Source of the DNA: Azonexus sp.
GTDB taxonomy: Bacteria; Pseudomonadota; Gammaproteobacteria; Burkholderiales; Rhodocyclaceae
NCBI RefSeq assembly: GCF_031260295.1
Contig: NZ_JAIRKE010000052.1
Reading direction: 5' to 3' (one strand)
Length of the DNA: 64,000 nt
Of the stretch, positions 3,425 through 35,695 are shown one piece after another. Position 1 is the first letter of the stretch; the number at the start of each line of letters is the position of its first letter. The translations under genes and the position numbers were made by a program. Under the pieces are notes generated by a model. It was not told the origin of the DNA, did not search any database, and was given only the letters and a program-made list of their open reading frames with translations.

Positions 3425-7822
<4,398 letters not shown>

Positions 7823-7900
7823 TCCACGTTGTTTTTTCTATGGACAGCGATTTCTCCGGCAGCGAGCTGGCCGGGTTTTTCGGGGGACGGCACGATGGAA

Positions 7901-9477: not shown

Positions 9478-10128
9478 ATGTTTTATGGCGTCACCGACCT
9501 GGCGACTTTCATGCTGGGCACCCTCTTCATCGTGCTGTTACCCGGGCCGAATTCGCTCTACGTGATGACGGTCGCCTCGCGCTTCGGCATCGCGGCCGGC
9601 TACCGGGGGGCGGCGGGTATTTTCGTCGGCGACCTGATCCTGATGATTCTCGCCGCTACCGGCGTGGCCTCGCTGTTCCAAGCCAATCCGGCGCTATTCG
9701 TGGCGCTCCGGTACGCCGGGGCGGTCTATCTGGCGTATCTCGGCATCGGGCTGGCGCACACCGCCTTCCTCCGCTGGCGCGGCACTACGGCGGCGGACGA
9801 TGAGCAACTGCCCGATATCAGTACGCCGCGGCCGTTTCGCGTGGCATTGGCGATCAGCCTGATGAACCCGAAGGCGATCCTGTTCTATGTCTCTTTCTTC
9901 ATCCAGTTCGTCGATCCGGCCTACGCGCATCCGGCGCTGTCCTTCCTGATTCTCGGGGCCATCGTCGAGTTCTTCAGCATGCTCTATTTGTCGGTACTGA
10001 TTCTCGGCGGCACGTTTCTGGCCGAGAGCTTGCGCCGTCGGCACCGGCTGACGGCGGCTGCAACCGGCGGGGTAGGTGGGCTGTTCATCGGCTTCGGGGC
10101 CAAGCTGGCCGGCGGTGGCCTGGGCTGA
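9478..10128 (+). CDS. LysE/RhtB-family amino-acid exporter (LeuE/YeaS-like)
   Basis: MFYGVTDLATFMLGTLFIVLLPGPNSLYVMT matches the LysE-family N-terminus. About 216 aa with six TM segments. The ATG at 9478 is in frame with ORF 9340..10128; the upstream part of that ORF lies in the AT-rich leader. Confidence 0.8.
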   Translation: MFYGVTDLATFMLGTLFIVLLPGPNSLYVMTVASRFGIAAGYRGAAGIFVGDLILMILAATGVASLFQANPALFVALRYAGAVYLAYLGIGLAHTAFLRWRGTTAADDEQLPDISTPRPFRVALAISLMNPKAILFYVSFFIQFVDPAYAHPALSFLILGAIVEFFSMLYLSVLILGGTFLAESLRRRHRLTAAATGGVGGLFIGFGAKLAGGGLG

Positions 10129-11289: not shown

Positions 11290-14021
11290 TCCGGATCGTC
11301 GATCGAGCAGAACTTCGGGGTTTCCTCCGCCAACGCCTCATCGCGGCCGCCAGCCTTTTCGGCCTGGCTGGCGCCTAGCGTGCGCAGGTAGTAAGTGGTC
11401 TTGAGGCCGCGCAGCCAGGCCAGCTTGTAAAGCTCGTCGAGCTTCTTGCCCGAGGGCCGCGCCATATAGAGATTCAGCGACTGGGCCTGGTCGATCCATT
11501 TCTGGCGTCGGGCGGCGGCCTCGATCAACCACCTCGGGTCGATCTCGAAAGCGGTGGCGTAGCGTGCCTTCAGTTCGTCCGGGATGCGGTCGATGCGGGC
11601 CAGCGAGCCGTCGAAATACTTGAGGTCGGCAACCATGACTTCATCCCACAGGTTGAGCGCCTTGAGGTCGCGCACCAAGGCCTCGTTGACGACGGTGAAC
11701 TCACCGGAGAGGTTGGATTTGACATAGATGTTCTGGTAGGCCGGCTCGATGCTGGCCGAGACGCCGACGATGTTGGAGATGGTGGCGGTGGGGGCGATGG
11801 CGACGCAGTTGGAGTTGCGCATGCCGTGCTGGGCGATGCGTGCTTTCAGCGCCGGCCAGTCGAGGTGGGTTTGGCGGTCGGTTTCGAGTTGGCCGCCGCG
11901 CGCTGTGGCCAGCAGGTCGAGCGATTCGTGCGGCAGGATGCCACGGTCCCACAGGCTGCCGGCGAAACTGGAATAGCGGCCACGCTCCTCGGCCAGTTCG
12001 GTCGAGGCCCAATAGGCGTGGTAGCAGACCGCCTCCATGCTGCGGTCGGCGAATTCGACCGTTTCCTCTGAGGCATAAGGCAGGCCCAGGGCGTGGAGGC
12101 AGTCGGCGAAGCCCATGATGCCGAGGCCGACCGGCCGGTGGCGCAGGTTGGCGTTGCGTGCCTTGGGCGTGGCGTAGAAATTGATGTCGACTACGTTGTC
12201 GAGCATGCGCAGGGCGGTGCTCACGGTGCGCGCCAGCTTGGCTGGGTCGAGTTTGCCGTCGCGCAGGTGGGCGACCAGGTTGATCGAGCCCAGGTTGCAT
12301 ACCGCTGTTTCCGCATCCGAGGTGTTCAGCGTGATCTCGGTGCACAGGTTGGAGCTGTGCACGACGCCGGTATGCTGTTGCGGTGAGCGCAGGTTGCAGG
12401 CGTCCTTGAAAGTGATCCAGGGATGTCCGGTCTCGAACAGCATGGTCAGCATCCGCCGCCACAGCTGCACGGCGGAAACCTTCTTGTGCAGGCGGATCTC
12501 GCCGGCGGCGGCGCGGGCTTCGTAAGCGCGATAGGCGGCGGCGAACTCGGTGCCGTACTTCTCGTGCAGGTCCGGCACGTCGACCGGGGAGAACAGCGTC
12601 CACTCGCCGTTTTCATGCACCCGTTGCATGAACAGGTCGGGAATCCAATGGGCGGTGTTCATGTCGTGCGTGCGCCGGCGCTCGTCGCCGGTGTTTTTAC
12701 GCAGGTCGAGGAACTCCTCGATGTCCAGATGCCAGGTTTCGAGATAGGCGCAGACCGCGCCCTTGCGCTTGCCGCCCTGGTTGACCGCCAGCGCCGTGTC
12801 GTTGACTACCTTGAGGAAGGGAATCACGCCCTGGCTTTGGCCGTTGGTGCCCTTGATGCGGCTACCGAGAGCACGCACTGGCGTCCAGTCGTTGCCCAGC
12901 CCGCCGGCGTACTTTTGCAGCAGGGCATTTTCCTTGATGCTCTGGTAAATGCCTTCGAGATCGTCGGAGACAGTGGTCAGGTAACACGACGACAGTTGCG
13001 AATGCCGCGTGCCGCTGTTGAACAGCGTTGGCGTCGAACACATGAAGTCGAAGCTGGAAATCAGGTCGTAGAACTCGATGGCACGCGCCTCGCGGTCGAT
13101 TTCGTTGAGCGCCAGACCCATCGCTACGCGCATGAAGAAAATCTGTGGCAATTCGAGGCAGCGTCCCTCGCTGTGCAGGAAATAGCGGTCGTACAGGGTT
13201 TGCAGGCCGAGATAGCCGAACAACTGGTCGCGCTCCGGCTTGAGGGCGGCGGCCAGTCGCCCGAGGTCGAACTCGGCCAGCCGGGGATCGAGCAGTTCGG
13301 CGGCGATGCCGTGCGCCACGAAACGCGGCAGGTAGTCGGCGTAGGCCGCGGCGGCCGGCGCCTCGCCCAGCACTTCCTCGGCCAGTCCGGCCAGCAGCAG
13401 GCGGGCAGTAGCGAAGTTGTAACCCGGCTCGCGTTCGATCAGGGTGCGGGCGGAAAGGACCAGGGCCTGCTGCACTTCGGCCAGGGACACGCCGTCGTAG
13501 AGATTCTTCAGGGCTTGGTCGAGGATCAGGCGCGGCGAAACGGCGCCGTCGAGTCCGGCGCAAGCCGCTTCGCAACGGCGCAGCAGGGCGGCGATGTCGA
13601 GCGGGCGGCGTTCGCCGCCGACCGTCAGGTGCAGGGGCGATGCCTGCACCTCGTCCAGCGCCGCCCGTTCGGCCGCCCGGCGTTCGCGGTAGAGCACGTA
13701 GGCGCGGGCCACGTCATGCTCGCCGGAGCGCATCAATGCCAGTTCGACATGATCCTGGATGTCTTCGATATGGACCGTGCCGCCGTCCGGTAGGCGCCGG
13801 GTCAGCGCGCGGACGACGTTGTCGGTCAGGTGCGCCACGACTTCGCGGATGCGGGCCGAGACGGCGCTCTGGCTGCCTTCGACGGCGAGGAAGGCCTTGG
13901 TCATCGCCAGCGAAATCTTCTCGGCTTTGAAGGCGACGACGGCGCCGTTGCGGCGGATGGCCTGCAGCGCGGCCAAGGCGGACTCGCTGCCGGCGGGGAG
14001 GACTAGGACGTTCGAGGACAC
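11271..14021 (-). CDS. nrdA: Ribonucleotide-diphosphate reductase alpha subunit (class Ia R1) with N-terminal ATP-cone
   Basis: ATP-cone IRRNGAVVAFKAEKISLAMTKAF followed by a large R1 body (NLCTEI, CNLGSINL...). I chose the GTG start at 14021, preceded by GGAGAA. The ORF-track extension to 14309 encodes an R/P/S-rich low-complexity stretch and is likely leader, not protein. Confidence 0.85.
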   Translation of the reverse strand: MSSNVLVLPAGSESALAALQAIRRNGAVVAFKAEKISLAMTKAFLAVEGSQSAVSARIREVVAHLTDNVVRALTRRLPDGGTVHIEDIQDHVELALMRSGEHDVARAYVLYRERRAAERAALDEVQASPLHLTVGGERRPLDIAALLRRCEAACAGLDGAVSPRLILDQALKNLYDGVSLAEVQQALVLSARTLIEREPGYNFATARLLLAGLAEEVLGEAPAAAAYADYLPRFVAHGIAAELLDPRLAEFDLGRLAAALKPERDQLFGYLGLQTLYDRYFLHSEGRCLELPQIFFMRVAMGLALNEIDREARAIEFYDLISSFDFMCSTPTLFNSGTRHSQLSSCYLTTVSDDLEGIYQSIKENALLQKYAGGLGNDWTPVRALGSRIKGTNGQSQGVIPFLKVVNDTALAVNQGGKRKGAVCAYLETWHLDIEEFLDLRKNTGDERRRTHDMNTAHWIPDLFMQRVHENGEWTLFSPVDVPDLHEKYGTEFAAAYRAYEARAAAGEIRLHKKVSAVQLWRRMLTMLFETGHPWITFKDACNLRSPQQHTGVVHSSNLCTEITLNTSDAETAVCNLGSINLVAHLRDGKLDPAKLARTVSTALRMLDNVVDINFYATPKARNANLRHRPVGLGIMGFADCLHALGLPYASEETVEFADRSMEAVCYHAYWASTELAEERGRYSSFAGSLWDRGILPHESLDLLATARGGQLETDRQTHLDWPALKARIAQHGMRNSNCVAIAPTATISNIVGVSASIEPAYQNIYVKSNLSGEFTVVNEALVRDLKALNLWDEVMVADLKYFDGSLARIDRIPDELKARYATAFEIDPRWLIEAAARRQKWIDQAQSLNLYMARPSGKKLDELYKLAWLRGLKTTYYLRTLGASQAEKAGGRDEALAEETPKFCSIDDPECEACQ

Positions 14022-24181: not shown

Positions 24182-24781
24182 TCACAACTGCTTTTCTTCT
24201 TGCAGCCACTTGCCGACCGGCTCCGGCCGATAGCCGGCCATCGCCGCCAGTAGGCGCTCGTGGTTGGTGTCGGCCAGCACCATCGCCCGGTTCTGCGGGC
24301 GCAGAAAGCCATCGGCGACGGCGCGGTCGAACATCGCCAGCAAGGGATCGTAGAAGCCGTTTACGTTGAGCAGACCCATCGGTTTTACGTGAAACCCGAG
24401 TTGCCCCCAGGTCAGCACTTCGCAGAATTCCTCGAAGGTGCCGAAGCCACCGGGCAGGGCGATGAAACCGTCGGCCAGTTCGGCCATGCGCGCCTTGCGG
24501 GTATGCATCGAATCGACTACTTCCAGGCGGGTCAATGCCCGGTGGTCGACGTTACGGCCGGCCACCTCCTTGCCCATCAGCGCTTGCGGAATGATGCCGA
24601 TGACGGTACCGCCGGCTGCCAAGCAGGCATCGGCAATGATGCCCATCAGGCCGATGTTGCCGCCGCCATAGACCAGTTCGATACCGTGCTCAGCGAGCAG
24701 GTGGCCGAGACGCTCGGCTTCGCCGCGGTAGAGGGGATGCTTGCCGGCATTGGAACCGCAAAAGACGCAGAGTCGTTTCAT
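24182..24781 (-). CDS. LOG-family (TIGR00730) cytokinin-riboside-5'-monophosphate phosphoribohydrolase-like protein
   Basis: GGGNIGLMG and PGGFGTFEEFCEV motifs. Confidence 0.9.
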   Translation of the reverse strand: MKRLCVFCGSNAGKHPLYRGEAERLGHLLAEHGIELVYGGGNIGLMGIIADACLAAGGTVIGIIPQALMGKEVAGRNVDHRALTRLEVVDSMHTRKARMAELADGFIALPGGFGTFEEFCEVLTWGQLGFHVKPMGLLNVNGFYDPLLAMFDRAVADGFLRPQNRAMVLADTNHERLLAAMAGYRPEPVGKWLQEEKQL

Positions 24782-25692
24782 GATGGGCTAGGGGCGGAAA
24801 GGTGTAGGACGACGGTTTCCGGCGGGCAGTTGAAGCGGAGGGGGAGAATGCTGGTGCCGACGCCGACGGTAACGAAGGTCGGTACCGGTGCATCGGGAAT
24901 CCAGCCGCCAGCGTGCCGGCGCGGCGAGCGACCGGGCGTGATAAGCGCGCCGATGAAGGGCAGGCGGACCTGGCCGCCGTGCGTGTGACCGGCGAAGGCG
25001 ACCAGGGCGCGGGCGGGCAAGTCCGGGGCGTTGGCCGGGTCGTGCATCATGACGATCAGTGGCGCGGCTGCGGGAACCTGGGCGAAAGCTTGATCGGGCC
25101 GGGCGTGGCCGGTCATGTCGTCGCCGATGCCGACCAGCCACAGCGAGCCGGCGGCGGTCGGCAGCGCCACGGCAGCATTTTCCAGAACCGTGATGCCGAC
25201 CTTCTGCAAAGCTTGCCGTACCTGCTCGCCGTCATATCCCCAATCGTGGTTGCCGAGCGTTGCATAGACGCCGAGCGGTGCCTTGAGGCGGGCGAGTTCA
25301 CCGGCGATGGCGGCCGGTTCGATCGTCTCGCCGCCGGGCACGCCCCGGGTCATGAAGTCGCCGGGTAACAGGATCAGGTCGGGCTGGCTGGCATTCAACT
25401 GGTCGACGACACGACGCAGCATCGGCAATCCGGCGTGCGGCGAACCGACGTGCAGGTCGGCGGCCACGGCGATGGTCAGGGGCGGGCCGGACCAAGCCGG
25501 CGCGGTCAAGGTCAGTTCGCGCTGCTGCAACCAGCCCGGCTCGAAGCCAACGCTCCAGACGGCCAGACAGAGGATGGTCAGCCGGACAATCCAGCGCAGG
25601 CGTTTCATGCGCCGCTCAAAAACCACCCGCTTCCCGCCAGCGTTCGATTCGCGGCAGGCGGTCGGCGTCGAAGAAGGCTTCACCTTGAACAC
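24778..25692 (-). CDS. Membrane-anchored calcineurin-like metallophosphoesterase
   Basis: N-terminal TM helix. AVAADLHVG, GDF and LGNHDWG metallophosphatase motifs. Confidence 0.85.
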   Translation of the reverse strand: MFKVKPSSTPTACRESNAGGKRVVFERRMKRLRWIVRLTILCLAVWSVGFEPGWLQQRELTLTAPAWSGPPLTIAVAADLHVGSPHAGLPMLRRVVDQLNASQPDLILLPGDFMTRGVPGGETIEPAAIAGELARLKAPLGVYATLGNHDWGYDGEQVRQALQKVGITVLENAAVALPTAAGSLWLVGIGDDMTGHARPDQAFAQVPAAAPLIVMMHDPANAPDLPARALVAFAGHTHGGQVRLPFIGALITPGRSPRRHAGGWIPDAPVPTFVTVGVGTSILPLRFNCPPETVVLHLSAPSPS

Positions 25693-28600
25693 TCAGTTGT
25701 CCGGCAAGACTTTTTCCAGTCTTTTCAGGGTTTCGTTCATGCGTTTAACATTTTCCCAGATGCTGTGATCCAGCTTCAGCTTGTGGTAATTGGCGGAAAT
25801 CAGCGGTGACAGGACGTTGTTATATAGCTGCTTCATCTCCTGGAGGCTCTCGCCAAATGCCTTGGTATCCGGCGCGGCAATGGCGATATTGGGCTGGACG
25901 TCGATCCGGGGTTCCAGGCTGCCCACGGTTTTTATCAGCGAAGCCAGTCCCTTTTTCAGGATTTGCGTGGTTTCCGACTGGGTGCGCAGTTCGTCGACAG
26001 CGCGCGAGATGTCGAGCAGGGTGTTGGCGATGCGCTGGCTGCCGTCGGCATCGTCGCCGCCCAATTTTTTTCGGCGCACGAATTCTTCGCGAATTTCCCG
26101 CCAGCGCGCCTGTTCTTCTTTGTTGAGGCTGCCGAGCAGTTCGGCGAGCTTCAACAGGTTCTCTTCCGCGCCCGTGGTGAGCGTCTGCGCTTCGCCGCGG
26201 TAATGATCGCGCAGGAGCGCATCCAGTTCGCCCTCGTCCATCAGCGGGGTGATGCGGGCGGCGAGCTTGGTCATATTACGGTAGCTGCCTTGCAGCCTGA
26301 ACGGGGGTTCAACGCGATAGGCGTCCTGTTGCGCGGCGGATTCGATGTAGGCGAGGTTAACTTTCAGCAGCAGGTCGCGGGCGCGGAAGAGCCGTTGCAT
26401 GAGAGCAACCAGTTCGTTGAGTTCGGCGGTGCTGTAACCATGCGCAAATTCGCTGCCGGCAATCGACTCGCCTTCCGCCATGCGCACGAGCAGATGCACG
26501 TCCTTGGGATCGCGTGAAGACAGCGGCAGCAGCACAGGATTGGCGGTGAGGCTGTTTTCGATGTAGGAAAGGGCGAATAGTGCCTCGCGCCCGGAGAGAA
26601 CGTCGCCGAGGTTGTAGATGTCGGCGCGGTTGGCGAGCATGTCGGGAATCTTGAAGACGTCGCCGGACTCGGTGTAGGGGTTGCCGGCCATGACGATGGC
26701 AAAACGCTTGCCGCGCAGGTCGCACGTGGTCGGCTCGCCGTTTCGCGTCGCCTCGATGCGGCGGGTGCCGTCGGCCAGGGCGATGAATTTTTGCAGGAAC
26801 TCGGGGTTGGTGTGCTGGATGTCGTCGAGATAGAGCATGACGTTGTTGCCCATCAGCAAGCCGAGGTTGAGCTTTTCGAGTTCCTGGCGCGCGGCGCTGT
26901 TGGGCGCGGTCGTTGGGTCGAGCGCGGTGATGCCGTGGCCCAGCGCCGGGCAGTTGATGCGGACAAAGATCATGCCGAGGCGGTCGGCGACGTATTCCAT
27001 CAGGGTCGTCTTGCCGTAACCCGGCGGGGAGATCAGGAGCAGCATGCCCATGCGGTCGCTCCGGCTGGCATCGCCGGTGGCGCCGATCTGCTTGGCAAGG
27101 TTGTCGCCGACAATGGGCAGGTAGAGTTCGTCGATCAGGCGGTTGCGCACGAAGGACGACAGCGGCTTGGCCTGAAACTGTTCGAGGTGCAGCCGCCGTT
27201 TTTCGGCTTCGAGAATGCGGTGGCGCACGGCTTGCAGTTCGGAGAAGCCGGTGGCGACGACTTCGGCGTGGTGCAGGTAACGACGCCAGAAATCGTGCAG
27301 GTTGAGGGCAATGGCGCCATCATGGATGTGCGGGTGCTCGCCCAGCAGGTTTTGCAGGGAGGTATCGAGGTCGGCGTTGACCCGCTCGCGTGGAATGTCG
27401 AGGGCGAAGCGCGTTGCGGCGTCGTCGGCCCAAATCGCCAGCTGCGGCTGGCTGGCGGTGGCGGCAAGCATCCAGTCCCGCGCCAGCCGCCAACGCTCAC
27501 CCGGCGCGGCAGCAGCAAGGTCGCGCTGCCAGGTGGCGAGCAGGCCGCTGCTTTCGAGTTTTCTTTGCAGGTCGTTGGCCAGATCGTCGGCAGCGGCGGC
27601 GATTAGCCAGCGTTCGTCGGTGTGCGAGGAGGCCAGTTGGCGAACCAGGTAGCGGGCGGCCTGGCGCCCGAGCCCGTTGCGGCCCGCATCGAAGTCAAAA
27701 TCGGGGGCAAAAGCGATGATCTTCTCGGCCAGCGTTTGTTCGAGGCGCTTCTGGCTGGCGCGCGTACCGTACTGGGCACGGATGCCCATGGCCGCCTGGG
27801 CCTGACGGAAGAAGGCGGAACGCTCTTCATCGCGGCAGCCGACGTGCCAGTAAAGCATGGCCAGCGCGCGCGCATCCGGCCCGTAGGAGAGAAGCCCCGC
27901 CGCCGCCTGCATGGCGACGAGGGCAGCGAGAATGCGGGCGGCATCGGCGTCGTGCACGCCTTTCTGGTAGCCCTCCTGGTAGCGGGGGGCGGCCCAGATG
28001 CGCAGCTTCTCAAGCAGGGGTTCCTTGTTTTTGTCGGCGCACAAGGCTTGCAGGCTTCGCCAGTCGAGCGCGAGATCTCCGGTTTCGTCGGCAATGACCG
28101 CTTCCAGCAAGCTGCCGGCGAGGTATTCGGCGCGGTAGAAGTCGGGCGTTTCGGAAATCAGCAGTTGATCCCACTGGGCGCGGAAGGCTTCCAGTTCGGC
28201 ACTGTGCTGCGGCAAGAGTGGGGCATAGTAGTCGGTGCCGCTCAGGTGGTATTGCATCACGCCTTCGCGCGGCACCAGCGTCAGATCGAGCGCCTGACGG
28301 CTAATGGTGAAAGCATGCTTGCCGAAACGCAGGGTATTGCCATCGTCGGAGACGAGTTCGCTCTGATCGCGTACCGAGCGGATGGCCTGATCGCGCGCGG
28401 TCTTGAATTGGGTGTCGAGATCATCGGCGCCGACACCATCGCCGAGCGTGCGCAGGCTGGTAATCTGTTGGCGCAATTTGCCGATCAACGGATCGGAGGC
28501 GAAATAGCTGTGCAGTTGCGCAAGCTCGTTGAATTGCGCGACGCGGCGCGGGATGCCGGCGAGGATGCGGGCGGCGGCATCAACGATGGCGCGGGCGCGG

Positions 28601-30927
28601 CGGTTTCTGGCGTCAAGCAGGATCTGCCGCTTGGCGAGGATCGATTCATAGACGGTTTCGCGCTTGGCGGCGATGTCCGCGAGAAATTGCTCCTGCTCGG
28701 CAAAACGCCCCTCCAGTTCTTCCAGTTGGGTCAGGAGGCGCGTCAGGGCGTCGTCGCACTTTTCAGGCGTGTCCGCCAGTTCGATGGCGTTTTCGAGCGA
28801 CTGCCCGAACAGTTTGAATTGTGCGCCAAACTCGGCGGTGGATTCCGTCGCGGACAAGCTGCGCCGACGATTCCTCGCCTCGGCGCGCAAGCGGTTGATT
28901 TCGGCGTAAACGGCGGAGATGGTGTCGAGAATCCGGGTGCGCACGACCGCGTCGCCGCCGGGCAAATTGCCAACCTGCCCGGTCAATAAATCGAGCCCGG
29001 CGGCGGAAGCATCGAGTTCGGCGAGCATTTTGGCGATGTCTTCGCTCGTTGCTGCCTTGTCGAGCCGCTCTTCGACGCGGACAAGTTCCTGACGGGTGCC
29101 ATCGAACGCTTTTTCCTGCGACAGGAAGGCCAGCGCTTTTTCCCCCACGCGGTCACTCTCGGTCGCGTAAGCGGCATCGAGCGCGCTGATGCGCCCGGCG
29201 TCGGCATAGCGCATTTCCAACAGCAATTGCAGTTGCCCGCGCTCCCCGCGCAAACGATCGAGCGCATGCACGAAATCTTCCGGTCTCTTCCAGATCGTCC
29301 CCGTGATTTCGGAGAGCAATTCCTGCTGGCGGCCTTCGGCCTGGTCGGTCGCCTGACGCGCGGCGCGGCGGATGCTTTCGACCTTTTCAAATTCGTCGAG
29401 TGTGTTCCTTGCTTCCTCCACGATGCCGTGCAACTCGGCATCCATCGCTCCCGCTTCCACGGCATCGAGCCAGAAGAAGGCATCCAGCGCGTTATCGCAC
29501 TGGCGGATGATTCCCTCGTAAGCGACGCGGGTCGGCACCTGTTCGCGCACGGCGCGGGCGATAGCCGTCAGTTCGGCAATTCCCCTGACCAGCTCGGGAT
29601 TGCCGATGCGTCCCCAAAACCCTCTCGCCGCTTTGGCGCGAGTGACGTGGTCCTCGTCGAAGAAGGGGGTTTGCCAGAGTTGCATCGGGTGGGTACGGGT
29701 CGGGTCCGGATTGCCGCCCTGGAAGGTGAGGATGCGCCCGTCCTCGAAACGGGCATACCCGTGGCAAAGGATGGGCGGCGACAGGCTTCTTTCGATCAGG
29801 TTGTACGAAAAAAGCATGTATTGCCCGCCTTGCGGCTGGTAAAAGACGTAGAGCACGTCTTCGCCATTGGGCGAACGCAGCATGCGCTTGAAGCGCGACG
29901 TGGCGGCCAGCGCTTCGGGCAGGTCGAACGCCTTGGTTTCGCCCGACTGCAGGTAATAGCCGCCGGGAAAGATCAAGCCATGATCCTCCGGCAACTGCAC
30001 GCAGGACTGGCCGATGGCGTCGATCCGGGTCACGGTGTTGGTGCGGGCGTTGAAGACCAGGTAGCGATCATGTTTTTCCCGGTAGGGGCGCACCTTCAGA
30101 AGGATCAGGGTGCCGAGCCGCGCATAGGCGATTTCCGCATCGGCAAGCGCCTGATTCTTGTCCTCGACCGGCTCGGAATAAATGCCGAGGCCCGTCTCGG
30201 TATTGTTCTCGACCTTGACCGTCAGATCGCCGTGTATGGTTTCGACGAATACGGTGTCCAGAATGTTGATATGCGGATGGCGCCCGCCAACGTGCTGATC
30301 GCGCGTACAAAGCGTCCATTCGAAATCGTGCGTGGACGGCAGGGCCATTTCGCGTTCGCCGCGATTGTCGATGTATTGGAGGCTGCCGTCGTTTTTCAGG
30401 GACCAGCGGAACACCCGCTGGTCGGTCAACTTTTCGCCGATCTGAAAAGCCGCGAAAAGCTTGTGCTGATGCACGCGCAATTGCGTGAGGTTTGCCTGCT
30501 TGTAATAGGCGTAAAGCTCGCGGAAATCGGCGACGAAGCGGGGATCGTCAAGAAAGGTTCCGGCCAGCGGCACGGGTTCCAGTTCCTCGACGCTCTCCGC
30601 GTTTTCCTGCAAGCGGTAGAGCGAAAACACGTCGTCGACCGCCGTTTCCTTGCGCAGACCGATGAAGACGTTGTAGCCGAACAGGAGCAGGTCGCCGCCG
30701 ATGCGGGTCAGGTCGCGGGCCACGCAATTGTTTTCGGTACGGGCGCGCGTGCGCAGGATCAGCGATTGTGTAGCGCGGCCGAATTCGGCAATCCGCGCTT
30801 CGTTCAAGCCTTGCGTTTTCTCAAGCAGCCGATCGCCCCGATCGGCGAGGCGTTTTTTCAGGAGTTCGTAACTGCCGCTCTCGGCAACAAGGGATTCGGT
30901 GGCGTCGATTTCGGGGATGTTGGCCAT
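25693..30927 (-). CDS. Giant (1744-aa) AAA+ ATPase-containing protein of unknown function
   Basis: One continuous ORF with an ATG at 30927. A single P-loop module sits at roughly residues 1250-1450 (Walker A LLISPPGYGKTTL, Walker B VMLYLDDIQHTNPEF, AAA_5/MoxR-like). The ~1200 N-terminal residues and ~300 C-terminal residues are largely helical or coiled-coil with no recognisable domain. It is co-oriented with the flotillin, NfeD and PspA genes. Confidence 0.8.
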   Translation of the reverse strand: MANIPEIDATESLVAESGSYELLKKRLADRGDRLLEKTQGLNEARIAEFGRATQSLILRTRARTENNCVARDLTRIGGDLLLFGYNVFIGLRKETAVDDVFSLYRLQENAESVEELEPVPLAGTFLDDPRFVADFRELYAYYKQANLTQLRVHQHKLFAAFQIGEKLTDQRVFRWSLKNDGSLQYIDNRGEREMALPSTHDFEWTLCTRDQHVGGRHPHINILDTVFVETIHGDLTVKVENNTETGLGIYSEPVEDKNQALADAEIAYARLGTLILLKVRPYREKHDRYLVFNARTNTVTRIDAIGQSCVQLPEDHGLIFPGGYYLQSGETKAFDLPEALAATSRFKRMLRSPNGEDVLYVFYQPQGGQYMLFSYNLIERSLSPPILCHGYARFEDGRILTFQGGNPDPTRTHPMQLWQTPFFDEDHVTRAKAARGFWGRIGNPELVRGIAELTAIARAVREQVPTRVAYEGIIRQCDNALDAFFWLDAVEAGAMDAELHGIVEEARNTLDEFEKVESIRRAARQATDQAEGRQQELLSEITGTIWKRPEDFVHALDRLRGERGQLQLLLEMRYADAGRISALDAAYATESDRVGEKALAFLSQEKAFDGTRQELVRVEERLDKAATSEDIAKMLAELDASAAGLDLLTGQVGNLPGGDAVVRTRILDTISAVYAEINRLRAEARNRRRSLSATESTAEFGAQFKLFGQSLENAIELADTPEKCDDALTRLLTQLEELEGRFAEQEQFLADIAAKRETVYESILAKRQILLDARNRRARAIVDAAARILAGIPRRVAQFNELAQLHSYFASDPLIGKLRQQITSLRTLGDGVGADDLDTQFKTARDQAIRSVRDQSELVSDDGNTLRFGKHAFTISRQALDLTLVPREGVMQYHLSGTDYYAPLLPQHSAELEAFRAQWDQLLISETPDFYRAEYLAGSLLEAVIADETGDLALDWRSLQALCADKNKEPLLEKLRIWAAPRYQEGYQKGVHDADAARILAALVAMQAAAGLLSYGPDARALAMLYWHVGCRDEERSAFFRQAQAAMGIRAQYGTRASQKRLEQTLAEKIIAFAPDFDFDAGRNGLGRQAARYLVRQLASSHTDERWLIAAAADDLANDLQRKLESSGLLATWQRDLAAAAPGERWRLARDWMLAATASQPQLAIWADDAATRFALDIPRERVNADLDTSLQNLLGEHPHIHDGAIALNLHDFWRRYLHHAEVVATGFSELQAVRHRILEAEKRRLHLEQFQAKPLSSFVRNRLIDELYLPIVGDNLAKQIGATGDASRSDRMGMLLLISPPGYGKTTLMEYVADRLGMIFVRINCPALGHGITALDPTTAPNSAARQELEKLNLGLLMGNNVMLYLDDIQHTNPEFLQKFIALADGTRRIEATRNGEPTTCDLRGKRFAIVMAGNPYTESGDVFKIPDMLANRADIYNLGDVLSGREALFALSYIENSLTANPVLLPLSSRDPKDVHLLVRMAEGESIAGSEFAHGYSTAELNELVALMQRLFRARDLLLKVNLAYIESAAQQDAYRVEPPFRLQGSYRNMTKLAARITPLMDEGELDALLRDHYRGEAQTLTTGAEENLLKLAELLGSLNKEEQARWREIREEFVRRKKLGGDDADGSQRIANTLLDISRAVDELRTQSETTQILKKGLASLIKTVGSLEPRIDVQPNIAIAAPDTKAFGESLQEMKQLYNNVLSPLISANYHKLKLDHSIWENVKRMNETLKRLEKVLPDN

Positions 30928-31142
30928 GACATGAATTTCCGGGTTCTGGATGTGTCGGACGGATCAGTGCTTCACGGGGAAACCCAAAAGGTCCCGCCGA
31001 AAAAGGGAATTGCATTTGACTCCCTCCCCCGCGAGGGGGGGAGGGTTGGGGTGGGGGGCATTCAGCGGCACTCGCCCCCATTCCGACCTTCCCCCGCCAA
31101 GCGGAGGAAGGAGCAAAACCGTCTTCGCGGTGGAGCCTTTCC

Positions 31143-33281
31143 TTATTTCTTCCCGAATTCATCCATCAGCGTTTTCAGCGCCGCCTTCTGTTCGGTGCTG
31201 CCTTCCTGCGCCACCTTGTTCACCAGCGCGGCGATGGAGAGGTTCTGCACGCTGCCGGAGGCGTTGCCCAGCGCGCCCAGCAGATCCTTGACATCTTCCA
31301 CCAGATCGCGCTGCCCGTTCAGGCGGTCGCGCAGGCCGACCTTCAGCGTGTTGCTCTTGCTGATGGCGCCGTCGATGCCCTTGCCAACCGCCAGCGCACT
31401 GACGAAACGCTCGAAGTAATCGCCTTCGCCGCCGACGATGTCGATGTTGGCTTTGCCCATCGCCGTGCCAAGCACTTCCGCCTGTTCGCGAGCGATGCTG
31501 CTTTGCGCTTCGATGGCTTTCAGGGTCTCGGTATGGGTGCGTTCGAGCTGCATGCGGAATTCCTCATGGGCGCGGGTTTCCGCGCTCATGGCCTTCATCG
31601 CATCGAATTTTTCTTTGAGACCCTTGGCTTCCGCAGCGAAGCGGAGCGCGATAACGTCCGCCTCGGCCTGACCGACGCTGGCGATGGCCTCTCCCTCCGC
31701 GGCGCGCACTTTCACCTCGGCCATGCCCTGTTTCTCCGTGGCCTCCGCGGTAGCCTGGCCAACGCTCGAAATGGCCTGCGCCTCCGCTGTGCGCACATTC
31801 ACCTGTGCCATGCCCTGTTTTTCCGAAGCTTCGGCATCGGCGATTTTCACCTTGGCATCGATCATGCCCTGCTTCTCCTTGGCATCCGCAGTAACCAACA
31901 ATACCTTGGCCTGGGCGAGGCCCGGCGCGGCGGCAATGGCTTCCATCCCTTCGGCTTCGCGCTTTTTCGCTTCCGCCGCCTTTTCGGCGACCTTCAACCT
32001 GGCTTCGGCCAGCGTCAGTTCCTCGGCGGCCTTGAACTGGGCGCGGCGCTCGGCGGCCTCGGCTTCCTTGACGTCCTTGATGAGCTTTTCCTCCGCCGCG
32101 CCTTCGGCGGTGATGACGACGGATTTCTTGATCCGGTCGGCCTCGGCGACGACGCGCACTTCCTTGATCGCCTCTTCCTGCTCGGCCACCGTGCGCTCGA
32201 CGATGACGCGCTCACGGATCACATCGGCAATCGCCTTCTTCTGGATTTCGACGGCGCGTTCCTTGTCGATTGCTTGCAGGGTGACTTCCTTCTCGCGGTC
32301 GACGATTTCCAGTTGCCGGGCGCGGGTGACCTTTTCCTCTTCCACCGCCACGACGCGCTTGCGGTTGTTTTCCGCCACTTCCTTCTCGCGGGCGACGTTT
32401 TCCATCTGCACGGCAATGAGCTGTTCGGCTTGCAGGCGCGCCAGTTCCGCCTTGGCATGCTCCTCCGATTCGATGCGGTGGGCTTCGGCTTCCTCGCGCG
32501 CCTTCACCGAGGCGATTTCGCGCTGCTGCTTGAATTCGGCATCGGCTTGTTGACGCTCAAGCTCAAGAATCGCCTCGCGCGTTTCGACATTCTTTTTCGT
32601 GATCTGCATTTCTTCGTTGCGCTTGTATTCATTGGTGCGCACGTTTTCATACGTCGTGAGTTCGGTAATTTTCTTGATCCCCTGCGCATCGAGGATGTTG
32701 TTCTTGTCGAGCATGGAGAGCGGCGTCTGCTCCAGGTAATCGATGGCGACATCGACCAACTCGTAGCCGGAAAGATCCTTGCCGATCTGCCTGACGATCT
32801 TGTCGCGGAAATCGTCGCGCTCCTGGTAAAGCTGGACAAAATCCATCAACTTGCCGACGGTTTTCAAGGCTTCCGAGAACTTGGCGGAGAACAGTTCCTC
32901 CAATGTTTCCTTGTTGGAAGCGCGCGCGCAGCCGATACCCTGCGCCACTTTCAGCACATCCTCGGTGGTCTTGTTGACCTGCACGAAGAAGGTCACCTTG
33001 ATGTCGGCCCGGATGTTGTCCCGGCAGATCAGGCCATCCTTGCCGGTTCGCGCGATTTCGATGGTCTTGCGGGCGATGTCCATCATCTCCGCCTTGTGGA
33101 TGATCGGATACACCATGCGCCCGGTGAAAGTGACATCCGGCTCGCTTCGGGTCGTATTGACGATCATGGCGTATCCCTGCTCGACCTTGCGGTAGAACTT
33201 CGAAAACAGCGCGAACAGGCCGAAGATGAAGATGGCGATAATGCCGACTGCAACGGCCATGACGATCAGGCTGGATCCCAT
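31143..33281 (-). CDS. Flotillin / SPFH (band-7) family protein (YqiK-like) with a long coiled-coil C-terminus
   Basis: N-terminal TM helix. SPFH domain (GYAMIVNTTRSEPDVTFTGRMVYPIIHKAEMMD...). An extended Ala/Glu/Lys-rich repetitive coiled-coil follows. 712 aa. Confidence 0.9.
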   Translation of the reverse strand: MGSSLIVMAVAVGIIAIFIFGLFALFSKFYRKVEQGYAMIVNTTRSEPDVTFTGRMVYPIIHKAEMMDIARKTIEIARTGKDGLICRDNIRADIKVTFFVQVNKTTEDVLKVAQGIGCARASNKETLEELFSAKFSEALKTVGKLMDFVQLYQERDDFRDKIVRQIGKDLSGYELVDVAIDYLEQTPLSMLDKNNILDAQGIKKITELTTYENVRTNEYKRNEEMQITKKNVETREAILELERQQADAEFKQQREIASVKAREEAEAHRIESEEHAKAELARLQAEQLIAVQMENVAREKEVAENNRKRVVAVEEEKVTRARQLEIVDREKEVTLQAIDKERAVEIQKKAIADVIRERVIVERTVAEQEEAIKEVRVVAEADRIKKSVVITAEGAAEEKLIKDVKEAEAAERRAQFKAAEELTLAEARLKVAEKAAEAKKREAEGMEAIAAAPGLAQAKVLLVTADAKEKQGMIDAKVKIADAEASEKQGMAQVNVRTAEAQAISSVGQATAEATEKQGMAEVKVRAAEGEAIASVGQAEADVIALRFAAEAKGLKEKFDAMKAMSAETRAHEEFRMQLERTHTETLKAIEAQSSIAREQAEVLGTAMGKANIDIVGGEGDYFERFVSALAVGKGIDGAISKSNTLKVGLRDRLNGQRDLVEDVKDLLGALGNASGSVQNLSIAALVNKVAQEGSTEQKAALKTLMDEFGKK

Positions 33282-34062: not shown

Positions 34063-34392
34063 TCATGCACCGTTCTGCTGCCTGGCAAAATCAATCAGAT
34101 CCTGCGTGACGCGCTCCTTGATCGCCAGACGGTCCGTGGCGAGAAGCCCGTAGCGCTTCGCCAGCGCTTCGTAGTCTTCCGGCGCCAGGGTGACGGTGAG
34201 CCGGGGCCGCTTGGGATGGCGGTTGACCGCCAGACCCAGAAAGCTGCGGATCTGGTCGGAGTTCGAGAGATTGTTCTCGAACGCGGCCTGGCGCACCGCC
34301 TCCAGCACGGCGGCCTCGACGTCGAACGCGACCTGCACCGCATGCAGGGCCGCATCCGAGCTTTGCCAACGCGCGGGTTTTCGTGCCGTCAT
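34063..34392 (-). CDS. Small hypothetical protein (109 aa), translationally coupled to the pspA-like gene
   Basis: Its start overlaps the PspA-family stop by 4 nt (ATGA). Helical; possible RHH-like or regulatory partner. No firm family assignment. Confidence 0.5.
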   Translation of the reverse strand: MTARKPARWQSSDAALHAVQVAFDVEAAVLEAVRQAAFENNLSNSDQIRSFLGLAVNRHPKRPRLTVTLAPEDYEALAKRYGLLATDRLAIKERVTQDLIDFARQQNGA

Positions 34393-35090
34393 GCCTTGTC
34401 CGCTGCCGCGCGGGCGCGGATGCGCTCCATCACCTTTGCCTTGCGCTGCGCGTCATCGCCAATGCCCGCTGCCGCCAGCTTCGCTTCCAGCGCCTTGGTG
34501 CCGAATTCCTTGTCCAGCGCCTCGGAGGCGGTCATCCGGTCGGCCTGATCCTCGTGGCGCTTCTTGATGCGCTCCAGCGATTCCTTGGCGCTCATCAGCT
34601 TCGAGCCGGAGGAGCCGATGCTCTCGGAAATCGTCTGGGTCGCCTTGTAGACGCTCTCGGTGGTCTTGGCCATCTGCACTTCGCGCTCATGCTCGCGAAT
34701 CCGGGCCTCGGAAGCCTTGATGAGATCTTTCAGCCGATTGGCATGCAGCGCGTAGTCGGCATGCAGTTGCGTTTGCTTTTCCAGCTCGGCCTCTTGCTCC
34801 GCGACCTTGGCCGCCACCTCTTCAGCCAGATCTTCCTTGCTCTTCTCCAGGGCTTCGAGCGCCAGGTTCTCCAGCCGAGCGATTTCCGCGCGCGCCCGTT
34901 CGATTTCCCGCGCGCTTTGCATTTCCTTGGCCATGACACCCGTCAGATCCGTTTTCGCCTTGGTAATTGCCTCGTGCGCGTCGCGGATTTCCTGCTCGTA
35001 GATGCGCACGCCATTGGCGTCGACAATGCTCTCGCCCAACTCGCGGGCGCTGCCCTTGATGAGGGTGGCGATTTTTCCAATCACGCTCAT
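34389..35090 (-). CDS. PspA/IM30 (Vipp1) family protein (YjfJ-like), ESCRT-III superfamily
   Basis: Typical ~230-aa all-helical IM30 protein (MSVIGKIATLIKGSARELGESIVDANGVRIYEQEIRDA...). Confidence 0.9.
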   Translation of the reverse strand: MSVIGKIATLIKGSARELGESIVDANGVRIYEQEIRDAHEAITKAKTDLTGVMAKEMQSAREIERARAEIARLENLALEALEKSKEDLAEEVAAKVAEQEAELEKQTQLHADYALHANRLKDLIKASEARIREHEREVQMAKTTESVYKATQTISESIGSSGSKLMSAKESLERIKKRHEDQADRMTASEALDKEFGTKALEAKLAAAGIGDDAQRKAKVMERIRARAAADKA

Positions 35091-35125: not shown

Positions 35126-35542
35126 TCAGTTCAGGTATTCCGCCAGCGCCTCCAGTGCATCGAGGGCGTTGTCGCTCAAGGCCACGATGTCGTCCGCGAT
35201 GGCCTCGCGCCTGGCGTTGGCGGACAGCGCGCCGAACAGCACGTGGCACCCTTCCACCCGGCCGAAGGAGGAAAGCGGTATCGCCGGATTCAAATCCAGC
35301 ATCAGTTCGAGCAATTCCAGCCGCTTTTCGGGGCGAATTTCCGCATCCCGCCAGAGATAACAGATGCACAGGATCTGATCGGGTGACGCGGTAATGAAGA
35401 TTGGCAACTCCTCGCGCCCGCCGATCACTACCTGCACGACCGGCACCTCCCCGGGGATCGGCTGCAAGCTGACAGGCACGTCGAACAAGCGCGCCTCAAG
35501 CAGGGCATCCAGACCTTCGAGCCGTTTTTGTAAGGACTGCAT
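35126..35542 (-). CDS. YjfI-like protein (DUF2170)
   Basis: ~138 aa, start MQSLQKRLEGLD. The position upstream of the yjfJ-like pspA gene mirrors E. coli yjfI-yjfJ. The family call rests on context plus weak sequence recollection. Confidence 0.5.
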   Translation of the reverse strand: MQSLQKRLEGLDALLEARLFDVPVSLQPIPGEVPVVQVVIGGREELPIFITASPDQILCICYLWRDAEIRPEKRLELLELMLDLNPAIPLSSFGRVEGCHVLFGALSANARREAIADDIVALSDNALDALEALAEYLN

Positions 35543-35695
35543 TTTTTGCTTCCTCGCATGAAAAAGATTGGTAGAGATGGTGCACCGTGAATATAGGCAC
35601 GGCGACATAAGATGTCAAGACATATTATGTCGCCGTGAAAAATCGCGGATGGATACGTTATGGCCGGACCAACCCGGCGGCCGCCGGGCGGGGCT

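Follow-up and report, generated by a model that had tools for sequence, protein, structure and literature searches.

A giant AAA+ ATPase of the BacE family encoded in a flotillin operon of Azonexus: a candidate remodeller of flotillin and PspA scaffolds

In this study, we analysed a stretch of 64,000 nucleotides from Azonexus sp. (contig NZ_JAIRKE010000052.1; hereafter the window) and its giant 1744-aa ATPase, which is almost certainly the ortholog of Pseudomonas aeruginosa BacE and a member of a flotillin operon. The overall explanation that we moderately favor is that this BacE ortholog uses ATP to remodel membrane scaffolds made of flotillin and PspA. The protein is a soluble, cytoplasmic, approximately 190-kDa member of the DUF3686-DUF7902-AAA+ family. 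This family (BacE) is already known, its operon has been published, and it is not a new family.

The ORF at 25693..30927 on the minus strand runs from ATG to TGA without interruption, and the first-pass annotation was right to treat the 1744-aa protein as real. Residues 34–485 match Pfam DUF3686 (PF12458) with an E value of 9.1e-190 and a score of 631 bits (cut-off 25), over profile positions 2–448 of 448, and residues 606–690 match DUF7902 (PF25472; E 1.2e-23). These two domains, together with the placement of the whole protein in a large named family with a published operon, replace the earlier premise that nothing was recognisable in approximately 1500 "unassigned" flanking residues. An Azonexus MAG encodes a protein of identical sequence (100%) named "DNA repair ATPase", which is also the NCBI product name for the homologues. 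Over 5900 homologues were found. Thousands of them, at 1600–1900 aa, are colinear with the window protein, as are all of the 120 best-scoring ones listed, and full-length representatives (1590–1931 aa) have the same domain order. The possibility that assembly errors or frameshifts had fused several genes, raised in the first-pass annotation as a finding that would overturn it, had only the unusual length in its favor; because the same colinear architecture occurs in hundreds of independent genomes, complete chromosomes included, we consider it refuted. No transmembrane segment was found in the 1744-aa protein, and no solved structure of a family member was matched by either the single sequence or the family profile. 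The features of the gene are as follows.

25693..30927 (stop codon included), minus strand: BacE-family giant AAA+ ATPase (ORF, Pfam, and homologues)
29473..30828, minus strand: aa 34–485, DUF3686 domain, with an N-terminal helix and then a beta-rich, propeller-like part
30142–30294, minus strand: aa 212–262, insert inside DUF3686, conserved and poorly modelled
28348..29472, minus strand: aa 486–860, helical rod built from 3- or 4-helix bundles in tandem
28858–29112, minus strand: aa 606–690, DUF7902, within the rod (Pfam)
27208..28347, minus strand: aa 861–1240, small beta unit (866–903), then a helical domain without a recognised fold (model)
27940–27960, minus strand: invariant motif G990-V-H992-D-x-D995 in the aa 861–1240 region (family-wide invariant columns)
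26488..27075, minus strand: aa 1285–1480, the single AAA+ module (pattern search and model)
27007–27030, minus strand: aa 1300–1307, Walker A SPPGYGKT (one match in the pattern search)
26821–26838, minus strand: aa 1364–1369, Walker B MLYLDD (one match in the pattern search)
aa 1391–1402, minus strand: predicted pre-sensor-1 beta-hairpin (model)
26674–26685, minus strand: sensor-1 GNPY, with N1416 as the sensor-1 Asn
26620–26646, minus strand: PDMLANRAD, carrying R1434, a candidate trans-acting arginine
26008..26487, minus strand: aa 1481–1640, helical C-module 3' of the ATPase core (lid and extension; conservation 0.63–0.73)
26272–26292, minus strand: QGSYRNM in the C-module, invariant, a sensor-2 candidate
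25696..26007, minus strand: aa 1641–1744, variable helical C-terminal tail (conservation 0.14–0.18, gaps 38–50%)

In the AlphaFold models, beta structure at approximately aa 55–420 is followed by helices (425–856), the small beta unit (866–903), further helices (906–1175), the AAA+ core (approximately 1290–1470), and helices up to the C-terminus, and the broad picture of a beta-rich region followed by long helical stretches drawn by the first-pass annotation holds. The region at aa 861–1240 has no sequence match in Pfam, NCBIfam, or PDB, and structural matches to the C-module at aa 1481–1640, to which the conserved DHYRGEAQTLTTGAEENLL block belongs, stop at the AAA+ core. The C-terminal tail is missing or divergent in many family members.

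The helical region is predicted to form approximately 800 residues of tandem spectrin/talin-like bundles, and the modelled layout of a propeller followed by a helical leg weakly resembles the N-terminal region of clathrin. Both predictions suit a mainly structural element, such as a long tether, a coat component, or a ruler (the conjecture of the first-pass annotation) beneath the membrane, with the nucleotide state serving as an assembly switch and not as a source of force, and so do the Walker B sequence, which reads DD in place of the usual DE, and the motif scan, in which no canonical aromatic (GYVG-type) pore loop was present. However, the AAA+ block, with its sensor-1, arginine, and sensor-2-like residues, is the best-conserved portion of the protein, and this speaks for real hydrolysis, while the rod is its least conserved part and varies in length among members of 1590–1931 aa, and therefore fits a precise ruler poorly. 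We consider such a mainly structural role improbable.

The window protein has all of the motifs SPPGYGKT, DD, QH, GNPY, PDML..R, and QGSYR, which are invariant across 65 representatives, as would be expected of a ring-forming, hydrolysing AAA+ module, which is what we infer from the sequence. Since the invariant R1434, N1416, and sensor-2-like GSYR fit such a module, the contrast with a classical hexameric machine drawn in the first-pass annotation is doubtful. Its reading of a single P-loop unit is borne out by the one Walker A and the one Walker B; when five stretches of the family alignment were compared with one another by hhalign, neither a second or cryptic AAA module nor an internal duplication emerged (probabilities all < 1%), and a degenerate further ATPase module was ruled out by this segment-against-segment comparison and the motif scan.

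To examine the clade of the module, seven E. coli AAA+ proteins were scored against the family profile. HCLR-type translocases appear to be its nearest relatives in sequence; RavA is last but one of the seven. The HCLR matches (RuvB, ClpX, Lon, and ClpB-D2) are mostly confined to the P-loop region, and the giant ATPase differs from these proteins in having no GYVG-type pore loop and in its unrelated flanking domains. In comparison with MoxR proteins (CbbQ, NorQ, and RavA) and midasin, it is without a VWA/MIDAS partner, an AAA_3 match, and, as far as the model shows, a helix-2 insert: no VWA domain was found in the protein, its window neighbours, or six annotated homologous loci; AAA_3 gave no match at E <= 0.1; and only a loop and a short helix are predicted between beta2 and alpha2 (aa 1326–1343), with no helix-2 insert appearing in the model. 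The AAA_5 score (19.7 bits) is below the cut-off of 22. A short-form protein from Thiomargarita passes AAA_5 with 26.9 bits. PF00004 aligns over profile positions 1–35 of 131 only and the pre-sensor-1 hairpin is present in the model, which places the module outside the classical AAA clade (Vps4, FtsH, and p97).

The ATPase gene is adjoined by scaffold genes, as the first-pass annotation had stated, and these comprise flotillin, YqiJ-like, and PspA genes. The elements upstream of the ATPase gene are as follows.

30928..31142, minus strand: intergenic spacer of 215 bp between the flotillin and ATPase genes, GC-rich, with a long hairpin
31143..33281, minus strand: YqiK-like flotillin, counterpart of BacD/PaFlo3, 712 aa, with an N-terminal transmembrane segment
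33355..34017, minus strand: YqiJ/short-NfeD-like multi-pass membrane protein, counterpart of BacC, 220 aa
34063..34392, minus strand: 109-aa protein with no assigned family (translation)
34389..35090, minus strand: PspA/IM30-family protein (YjfJ/BacB-like, ESCRT-III superfamily), 233 aa (PspA_IM30, E 1.4e-32)
35126..35542, minus strand: DUF2170 protein (YjfI/BacA-like, CesT/Tir-type chaperone or regulator; Pfam E 5e-27)
35590..35637, minus strand: candidate operon promoter, TTGACA-17-TATATT at 35618-35590 (11/12 matches)

By plain HMMER, the flotillin had no Pfam match and reached only E 0.26 with NCBIfam FloT; therefore, a profile comparison with YqiK was needed. In hhalign, its family profile matched E. 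coli YqiK with a probability of 99.9% (E 7e-34, 417 columns). A C-terminal extension particular to BacE-linked flotillins was considered and could not be demonstrated, as the alignment with the YqiK tail scored 72 against 74 for the best shuffle. The YqiJ-like protein, whose hydrophobic segments lie within aa 6–136, matched E. coli YqiJ with a probability of 84% (E 7e-6). The 109-aa protein has no significant Pfam match; judged by eye, its sequence may be a tandem ribbon-helix-helix and the protein an operon regulator. The DUF2170 protein scores 43 bits with NCBIfam BacA, below the cut-off. The longest ORF of its gene begins at 35608, within the candidate promoter, and the gene is called at 138 aa in a 92%-identical relative; the real start is probably 35542 (138 aa). 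The candidate promoter, the sole strong site in a promoter scan across 23.5–36 kb, is embraced by an inverted repeat with perfect 13-bp arms (at 35637-35625 and 35610-35598).

The 215-bp spacer has a predicted RNA fold of -94.9 kcal/mol (z -2.45). It matched no Rfam family, all hairpin-like matches being sub-threshold, and it occurs as a single copy within the window. In relatives, a gene for a 182-aa Zn-ribbon protein occupies this position, and no trace was found of the spacer being a remnant of that gene. Downstream of the ATPase gene, the Metallophos and LOG genes were rejected as members of the system: neither is carried by any of 80 homologous loci (0/80), and the 92%-identical relative alone has them too, with a gap of 173 bp between them and the ATPase gene. 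The apparent abutment of stop and start codons in the window is a product of taking the longest ORF.

Across the 80 loci examined, flotillin lies immediately upstream of the ATPase in 71 of the 71 informative loci; of the remaining nine, eight are contigs that break off at the gene and one encodes a short-form protein. A YqiJ-like gene was found in 57 of the 80, PspA in cis in 37, and a DUF2170 gene in 23, while the 109-aa gene is conserved in 20, together with PspA and DUF2170. PspA is absent nearby in all Xanthomonadales-type loci. The triad of YqiJ-like protein, flotillin, and ATPase persists in the most divergent representatives (30–34% identity). In other genomes, membrane-related accessory genes stand next to the ATPase, namely PLDc_2 (20 loci), TelA (13), and rhomboid (12). 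The core of the system is the YqiJ/NfeD-like protein, flotillin, and ATPase, and the PLD, TelA, rhomboid, Zn-ribbon, and RHH-like accessories are variable.

The window protein is 48% identical end to end to a P. aeruginosa protein (P0145; 1759 aligned columns), whose cluster contains 3222 member sequences. The order of its locus is DUF2170-PspA-213aa-688aa-P0145-PLDc_2-YaeQ-RecJ-M4 peptidase, and the DUF2170 protein there passes the NCBIfam BacA equivalog (339 bits against 300). Because of these neighbours, including the BacA equivalog, and the published gene order, P0145 is identified as PA3728/PA14_16190 (BacE). The bacABCDEF "biofilm-associated cluster" of P. aeruginosa (Mace 2008; Wallart 2024) is co-transcribed, and BacB-F are upregulated 6–13-fold in a bacA mutant (PMC10948618). 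Links of the operon to biofilm formation, virulence, osmotic stress, phage infection, and RsmA control have been described; osmotic shock induces BacB (PMC2587700), and the P. aeruginosa ortholog has been reported as recurrently mutated in cystic-fibrosis isolates. Deletion of PaFlo3 lowered biofilm by 20% with no further phenotype (PMC13086221), so that under laboratory conditions the system is dispensable. The literature searched held no biochemical, structural, or genetic datum on BacE itself. The window shares with bacABCDEF the upstream genes (BacA/DUF2170, BacB/PspA, BacC/YqiJ-like, and BacD/flotillin) and the domain order of BacE, but the 109-aa gene is additional, lying between the PspA and YqiJ-like genes; PLD-family BacF is missing, and the unrelated Metallophos and LOG genes come next in its place; and the candidate promoter with palindrome is of the sigma-70 type, whereas a sigma-54 site is reported for P. 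aeruginosa.

Ravi et al. 2024 (mSystems) described computationally CesT/Tir-PspA-YqiJ/YuaF-Band-7/flotillin operons with a "beta-propeller + coiled-coil + AAA-ATPase" protein. Their gene-neighbourhood logic and domain description are identical to those of the window, and they gave no Pfam assignment, AAA+ clade, or mechanism. The "coiled coil" models here as tandem helical bundles, and the propeller call is only weakly reproduced.

These neighbourhoods also bear on the function implied by the database name. A role as a DNA-repair ATPase is suggested by names only (the Pfam DUF3686 title and the NCBI product name), a weak P-loop similarity to RuvB, and the position of recJ three genes downstream in P. 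aeruginosa. However, the RuvB similarity is limited to approximately 40–75 residues around the P-loop; Pfam, NCBIfam, and PDB profile searches found no DNA-binding, nuclease, or helicase domain; and conservation around the gene in the 80 loci extends to membrane-scaffold and stress genes but to no repair gene. DUF3686 is not mentioned in the literature searched. Therefore, we give DNA repair hardly any credence.

Phage infection induces PA3728-PA3732 (PMC12041424), and the ATPase could on that basis be the infection sensor of an anti-phage or abortive-infection module with PLD-family BacF as the effector. A BacF-like PLDc_2 gene, weakly similar to the NucT, DrmC, and DpdK nucleases, follows the ATPase in 20 loci, and a TIR_2 gene adjoins one homologue. 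On the other hand, PspA systems generally answer membrane damage caused by phage, the PLD gene is missing from the window and most loci, and the conserved partners are all membrane-scaffold or stress proteins. PADLOC gives P-loop noise only (IetA, E 0.005–0.01 over 30 residues), and the 3222-member P. aeruginosa cluster resembles a core gene and not a variable island. We regard a defence function as very improbable.

The coupling of an AAA+ ATPase to a gene for an ESCRT-III-superfamily protein (PspA) is the likeness to the archaeal and eukaryotic Vps4/ESCRT-III systems, and it makes a polymer-recycling role comparable to that of Vps4 plausible. According to a 2025 review (PMC7619361), bacteria appear to have no Vps4-like ATPase, which leaves this role apparently vacant. 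In a strict Vps4 analogue, the true substrate would be the BacB/YjfJ-type polymer, from which PspA subunits would be extracted so that the polymer is recycled after repair, and flotillin would be a mere membrane recruiter of PspA and the ATPase. In the window, and in 37/80 loci overall, the operon begins with PspA and its BacA-type partner, and an SPFH protein is reported to be required in B. subtilis for PspA to reach the membrane. In addition, family members that retain a window-like C-terminal tail tend to have PspA in cis (odds ratio 6.2, p 9e-4), a correlation that is confounded by phylogeny. Furthermore, approximately half of the loci have no PspA nearby while flotillin is never missing, so that BacE is linked more strongly to flotillin than to PspA; no MIT or MIT-like domain was detected in Pfam and profile searches of the giant ATPase; the hairpin and the 35 of 131 PF00004 positions set the module apart from the classical Vps4 clade; and BacE is approximately four times larger than Vps4. 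A strict analogue of Vps4 is therefore unlikely.

SPFH scaffolds are paired with AAA+ machines in HflK/C-FtsH, prohibitin-m-AAA, and SLP2-YME1L-PARL. The BacE operons resemble these pairs in that an SPFH/flotillin assembly recurs together with an AAA+ machine, and the rhomboid gene that follows the ATPase in 12 loci echoes SLP2-PARL-YME1L. Unlike the FtsH-type partners, BacE is soluble, has neither a protease domain nor a transmembrane anchor, and is not of the FtsH clade.

We propose a mechanism in which BacE remodels flotillin/PspA scaffolds. The AAA+ modules, one per subunit, would form a ring and hydrolyse ATP. Each subunit would extend a long spectrin/talin-like helical-bundle arm tipped by a beta-rich, propeller-like head, which would bind the cytoplasmic flotillin assembly and reach PspA polymers directly or indirectly. 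ATP turnover would then reshape the sub-membrane scaffolds (by assembly, opening, or disassembly and recycling) in envelope stress. Here, we infer ring formation, the pairing of domains with partners, and the direction of remodelling; the gene linkage itself is silent on what the ATPase does to the scaffold. The Walker B DD, the absent canonical pore loop, the mild phenotype of the PaFlo3 deletion, and the presence of PspA in cis in only approximately half of the loci count against remodelling, and that it is the activity of the giant ATPase is a little short of an even prospect. More tentatively still, the BacE family could be the missing motor of bacterial sub-membrane scaffolds, a non-Vps4, convergent AAA+ that opens or disassembles flotillin cages and recycles PspA/ESCRT-III polymers in membrane repair, its propeller-tipped arm extending to the scaffold from an ATPase ring in the cytoplasm.

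The window brings no new principle, and it corrects the misleading "DNA repair ATPase" annotation. The domain map supplies testable residues: K1306, D1368/D1369, N1416, R1434, R1550, the insert at 212–262, and H992/D995. Flotillins and PspA/Vipp1 (bacterial ESCRT-III) have been much studied as membrane organisers, and a recognised energy source for assembling, opening, or recycling them in bacteria is lacking. An ATPase with invariant motifs that is tied to a YqiK-type flotillin everywhere examined, and to PspA in approximately half of the loci, is therefore an obvious candidate for this motor. If true, the turnover of ESCRT-III and flotillin assemblies in bacteria would be accounted for.

An uninterrupted ORF (25693..30927, minus strand) encodes the 1744-aa ATPase, which is 100% identical to the NCBI entry 'MAG: DNA repair ATPase [Azonexus sp.]'. 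Database matches at E <= 1e-5 number more than 5900; the best 120 of these share 62-92% identity, and nearly all of them are 1710-1820 aa long with an identical Pfam string. A search with the first 500 residues against 1.84 billion cluster representatives returned 698 clusters at E <= 1e-3 and 247 at E <= 1e-30, and a DUF3686-type domain is N-terminal in all full-length matches (1590-1931 aa). Pfam places DUF3686 at aa 34-485 (E 9.1e-190) and DUF7902 at aa 606-690 (E 1.2e-23). Therefore, the first-pass annotation erred as a database statement in calling about 1500 residues unassigned, but both assignments are DUFs, and to that extent its wording stands. A literature search for DUF3686 found no mention, and no solved structure of a relative was found. 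The same annotation had considered that the ORF might be a fusion created by frameshifts; this was excluded by the colinear architecture and shared Pfam string of homologues of equal layout. Nor is the protein an orphan.

A motif scan found one Walker A and one matching Walker B, while two further hhhhD[DE] strings (aa 943 and aa 1110) have no P-loop partner. A family alignment of 65 members was cut into five segments, and their cross-comparison with hhalign (all probabilities <1%) detected neither a second or degenerate ATPase module nor an internal duplication. No transmembrane segment was found in the protein, whose Kyte-Doolittle 19-residue average peaks at 1.63. The earlier physical description, with its single Walker A/Walker B unit, is therefore correct. 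Two AlphaFold2 models were built from 78-sequence alignments (aa 1-1200, mean pLDDT 77; aa 1151-1744, mean pLDDT 73).

Motifs and domains of the ATPase
aa 866-903, minus strand: small beta unit (AlphaFold2 model)
aa 906-1175, minus strand: helical domain after the beta unit, carrying invariant G990, H992 and D995 (AlphaFold2 model)
aa 1300-1307 (window 27007-27030), minus strand: Walker A, SPPGYGKT (motif scan)
aa 1364-1369 (window 26821-26838), minus strand: Walker B, MLYLDD (motif scan)
aa 1391-1402, minus strand: hairpin at the pre-sensor-1 position of the AAA+ core (AlphaFold2 model)
aa 1481-1640, minus strand: conserved helical C-module, carrying invariant QGSYRxM
aa 1641-1744, minus strand: variable C-terminal tail (family conservation)

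The modeled AAA+ core has no obvious helix-2 insert. Matches to the middle domain (the beta unit and the helical domain) were sought, and none was found. This otherwise poorly conserved helical domain contains the motif G-V-H-D-x-D-A (aa 990-996; 27940-27960, minus strand), in which G990, H992, and D995 are invariant family-wide; the motif is reminiscent of a candidate metal- or ligand-binding site. In the N-terminal head, the best-conserved stretch (aa 212-262; 30142-30294; HPHxNILDTVFVETxGGDLTxKxENNTE...) has a pLDDT of only 34-43 despite its high conservation, and it may be an insert ordering only upon partner binding. A Thiomargarita MAG (locus L036, 9992-11878) encodes a 628-aa stand-alone AAA+ module with the conserved C-module, lacking head and rod and about 50% identical to the corresponding C-terminal part of the window protein; its gene adjoins ABC-ATPase, SNase, and DUF2066 genes. 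In evolutionary terms, the last 600 residues therefore constitute a unit of their own.

Tests of the AAA+ clade were mutually discordant. Pfam gave only weak or partial hits in the ATPase region (AAA across 35 positions, AAA_22, and sub-threshold AAA_5) and no AAA_3. Against E. coli proteins, the family profile ranked RuvB first (E 8.6e-9), followed by ClpX (1.3e-6), FtsH (2.2e-6), Lon (3.3e-6), McrB (7e-5), the MoxR protein RavA (1.2e-3), and NtrC (0.3); RuvB was again first against the PDB. For the DNA repair function stated in the database, nothing beyond this P-loop similarity to RuvB gives support, and we consider such a role extremely improbable. No VWA partner was present in any inspected locus. 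The earlier label 'MoxR/AAA_5-like' is thus permissible as a resemblance but not as membership, and we conclude that the ATPase probably forms its own family within the pre-sensor-1-hairpin superclade of AAA+ proteins.

Residues S1300-T1307, D1368, D1369, Q1371, H1372, G1415-Y1418, P1428-L1431, R1434, and Q1546-R1550 are invariant in 65 BacE-family representatives (32-53% identity), and conservation along the protein peaks in the AAA+ block (majority fraction 0.67-0.83 vs 0.26-0.59 elsewhere). The rod would suit a mostly structural ruler or tether, but neither this conservation pattern nor the variable length fits, and we regard that role as improbable. The invariant Arg at the trans-acting finger position argues for an oligomeric ring. 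Walker B reads DD, not DE, and PALGH occupies the loop that bears the aromatic pore residue in unfoldases; these sequences are compatible with remodeling, and threading is neither proven nor excluded by them.

The ATPase gene is preceded on the same strand, outermost first, by a promoter, DUF2170, PspA/IM30, a 109-aa ORF, a 220-aa multi-pass membrane protein, and a 712-aa protein that carries a transmembrane segment at its N-terminus along with a long stretch rich in Glu and Ala.

Features flanking the ATPase gene
35618-35590, minus strand: sigma-70-like promoter TTGACA-17-TATATT, the sole 11/12 match in 12.5 kb
35590-35637, minus strand: perfect 13-bp inverted repeat CACGGCGACATAA / TTATGTCGCCGTG bracketing the promoter (sequence read)
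34063-34392, minus strand: 109-aa ORF with a 4-nt overlap with the PspA stop codon
30928-31142, minus strand: GC-rich spacer of 215 bp separating the flotillin gene from the ATPase gene, with an extended predicted hairpin (-94.9 kcal/mol, z -2.45)
24182-25692, minus strand: Metallophos (calcineurin-like phosphoesterase) and LOG (Lysine_decarbox) genes directly downstream of the ATPase

For the DUF2170 gene, the start given by the longest ORF (35608) falls within the promoter; therefore, the true start is probably 35542. This near-consensus sigma-70 promoter differs from the sigma-54 site reported for the P. aeruginosa operon. The 109-aa product looks, by eye, like a tandem ribbon-helix-helix protein, has no Pfam support, and is a candidate repressor for the promoter palindrome. 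Plain HMMER did not recognize the 712-aa and 220-aa proteins. When profiles from 29 and 24 orthologues, respectively, were aligned to E. coli proteins, the 712-aa family matched the flotillin YqiK (probability 99.9%, E 7e-34, 417 columns) and the 220-aa family matched YqiJ (probability 84%, E 7e-6). The spacer occurs once in the window and belongs to no Rfam family; relatives carry a 182-aa double Zn-ribbon gene in this slot. The hairpin could be an intra-operon attenuator setting the flotillin:ATPase ratio. Separately, window 4001-10000 has a GC content of 0.58 (0.65-0.69 in the flanks) and negative AT skew, and may have been acquired horizontally.

With each species represented by one genome, a scan yielded at least 595 loci; tblastn with the window's neighbor genes was run on the best 80, which came from beta-, gamma-, and zetaproteobacteria, Myxococcota, and one actinobacterial record. 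Flotillin lies directly upstream of the ATPase in 71/80 loci; eight of the nine exceptions are contigs ending in or at the ATPase gene, and the other is L036, whose short protein is a different one. YqiJ-like genes were found in 57/80 loci, PspA in 37/80, DUF2170 in 23/80, and the 109-aa ORF in 20/80, always with PspA and DUF2170 and absent in P. aeruginosa. Thus, the core comprises the YqiJ-like protein, flotillin, and the ATPase, and PspA, DUF2170, and others are accessories. Neither the phosphoesterase gene nor the LOG gene was found in any of the 80 loci, and both are bystanders; only a 92%-identical relative shares them, and there 173 bp lie between them and the ATPase. That the ATPase is a PspA-specific Vps4 analogue, a sub-case of scaffold remodeling, is unlikely given universal flotillin linkage vs PspA linkage in about half. 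PspA in cis is commoner among homologues with a window-like C-terminal tail (28/37 vs 9/27, p 9e-4, a comparison confounded by phylogeny).

Pfam-verified accessory genes next to the ATPase encode PLD-family PLDc_2 (BacF-like, 20/71), TelA (13), rhomboid (12), and double Zn-ribbon (Zn_ribbon_TFIIB, about 18) proteins. A gene for a 227-241-aa protein without family assignment is beside it in 8 loci. They occur downstream or just upstream of the ATPase (e.g., L002, L024, L032, and L085), and the window has none; those that could be identified are all linked to membranes or stress. The two most divergent placeable representatives (head 30-34% identity) still have, in this order, a ~210-aa gene, a ~650-aa gene (Band_7 in one of them), the ATPase, and an adjacent downstream TelA. 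At L084, a TIR_2-domain gene (12221-13180), probably an unrelated defence gene, is convergent with the adjoining gene of a 76%-identical ATPase.

The window DUF2170 protein weakly matches the NCBIfam model of P. aeruginosa BacA. Starting from a Pseudomonas homologue, a search retrieved P. aeruginosa P0145 (1746 aa, representative of a 3222-sequence cluster), which is 48% identical to the window protein end to end. Its locus encodes DUF2170 (206 aa), PspA (231 aa), 213-aa and 688-aa proteins, P0145, PLDc_2, YaeQ, RecJ, and an M4 peptidase, and this DUF2170 protein clears the BacA equivalog cut-off (339 bits vs 300). For the 'biofilm-associated cluster' of P. aeruginosa, the published order bacA-F is PA14_16140 to PA14_16200 (PA3732 to PA3727), and the published sizes of PA3729 and PA3730 agree with the P0145 locus. 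Gene order and sizes therefore identify P0145 as BacE (PA3728/PA14_16190). We are highly confident in the identification of the window protein and its operon membership; it adds one more member, in its standard operon, to the BacE/DUF3686 family, and is genuine and well described rather than new.

The P. aeruginosa bac genes form a single transcript and respond jointly to envelope-type stresses. Co-transcription covers all six genes, and mutation of bacA raises BacB-F 6-13-fold (PMC10948618). The PspA-like PA3731 protein is induced by osmotic shock, and its mutant is impaired in biofilm, rhamnolipid production, swarming, and virulence (PMC2587700). PA14_16190 ranks near the top of the genes regulated by RsmA (PMC8855297), PA3728 is listed with mutations in cystic-fibrosis isolates from three studies (PMC8190622), and deletion of the flotillin PaFlo3 has almost no phenotype in the laboratory (PMC13086221). 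Phage infection induces PA3728-PA3732 (PMC12041424). Support for a phage-defence module is circumstantial, PADLOC was negative, and we consider this role very improbable.

The ATPase is a giant soluble protein with intact catalytic motifs, encoded as a fixed partner of flotillin and an NfeD-type companion, and genes for a CesT-like regulator and a PspA-type ESCRT-III protein are often in the same operon. SPFH assemblies are recurrently paired with AAA+ machines (HflK/C-FtsH, prohibitin-m-AAA, and SLP2-YME1L-PARL), a parallel to the flotillin-ATPase pairing, and ESCRT-III polymers require Vps4, a parallel for the ATPase with PspA. A Vps4-like ATPase has been said to be missing from bacteria (PMC7619361). 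We infer that the ATPase would assemble into a ring, whose propeller-like heads on spectrin-like arms would dock onto PspA polymers, the cytoplasmic flotillin dome, or both, and that ATP hydrolysis would power the assembly of these scaffolds, their opening, or their disassembly. Scaffold remodeling as its activity is tentative, with chances slightly short of even; we lean modestly towards the overall statement of a BacE ortholog, operon member, and scaffold remodeler.

The BacE-type operon has already been described, computationally (Ravi et al. 2024) and experimentally for regulation only; experimental knowledge concerns regulation and phenotypes of the P. aeruginosa operon. For bacterial membrane biology, the molecular function of the BacE-family ATPase is a subject of genuine interest.
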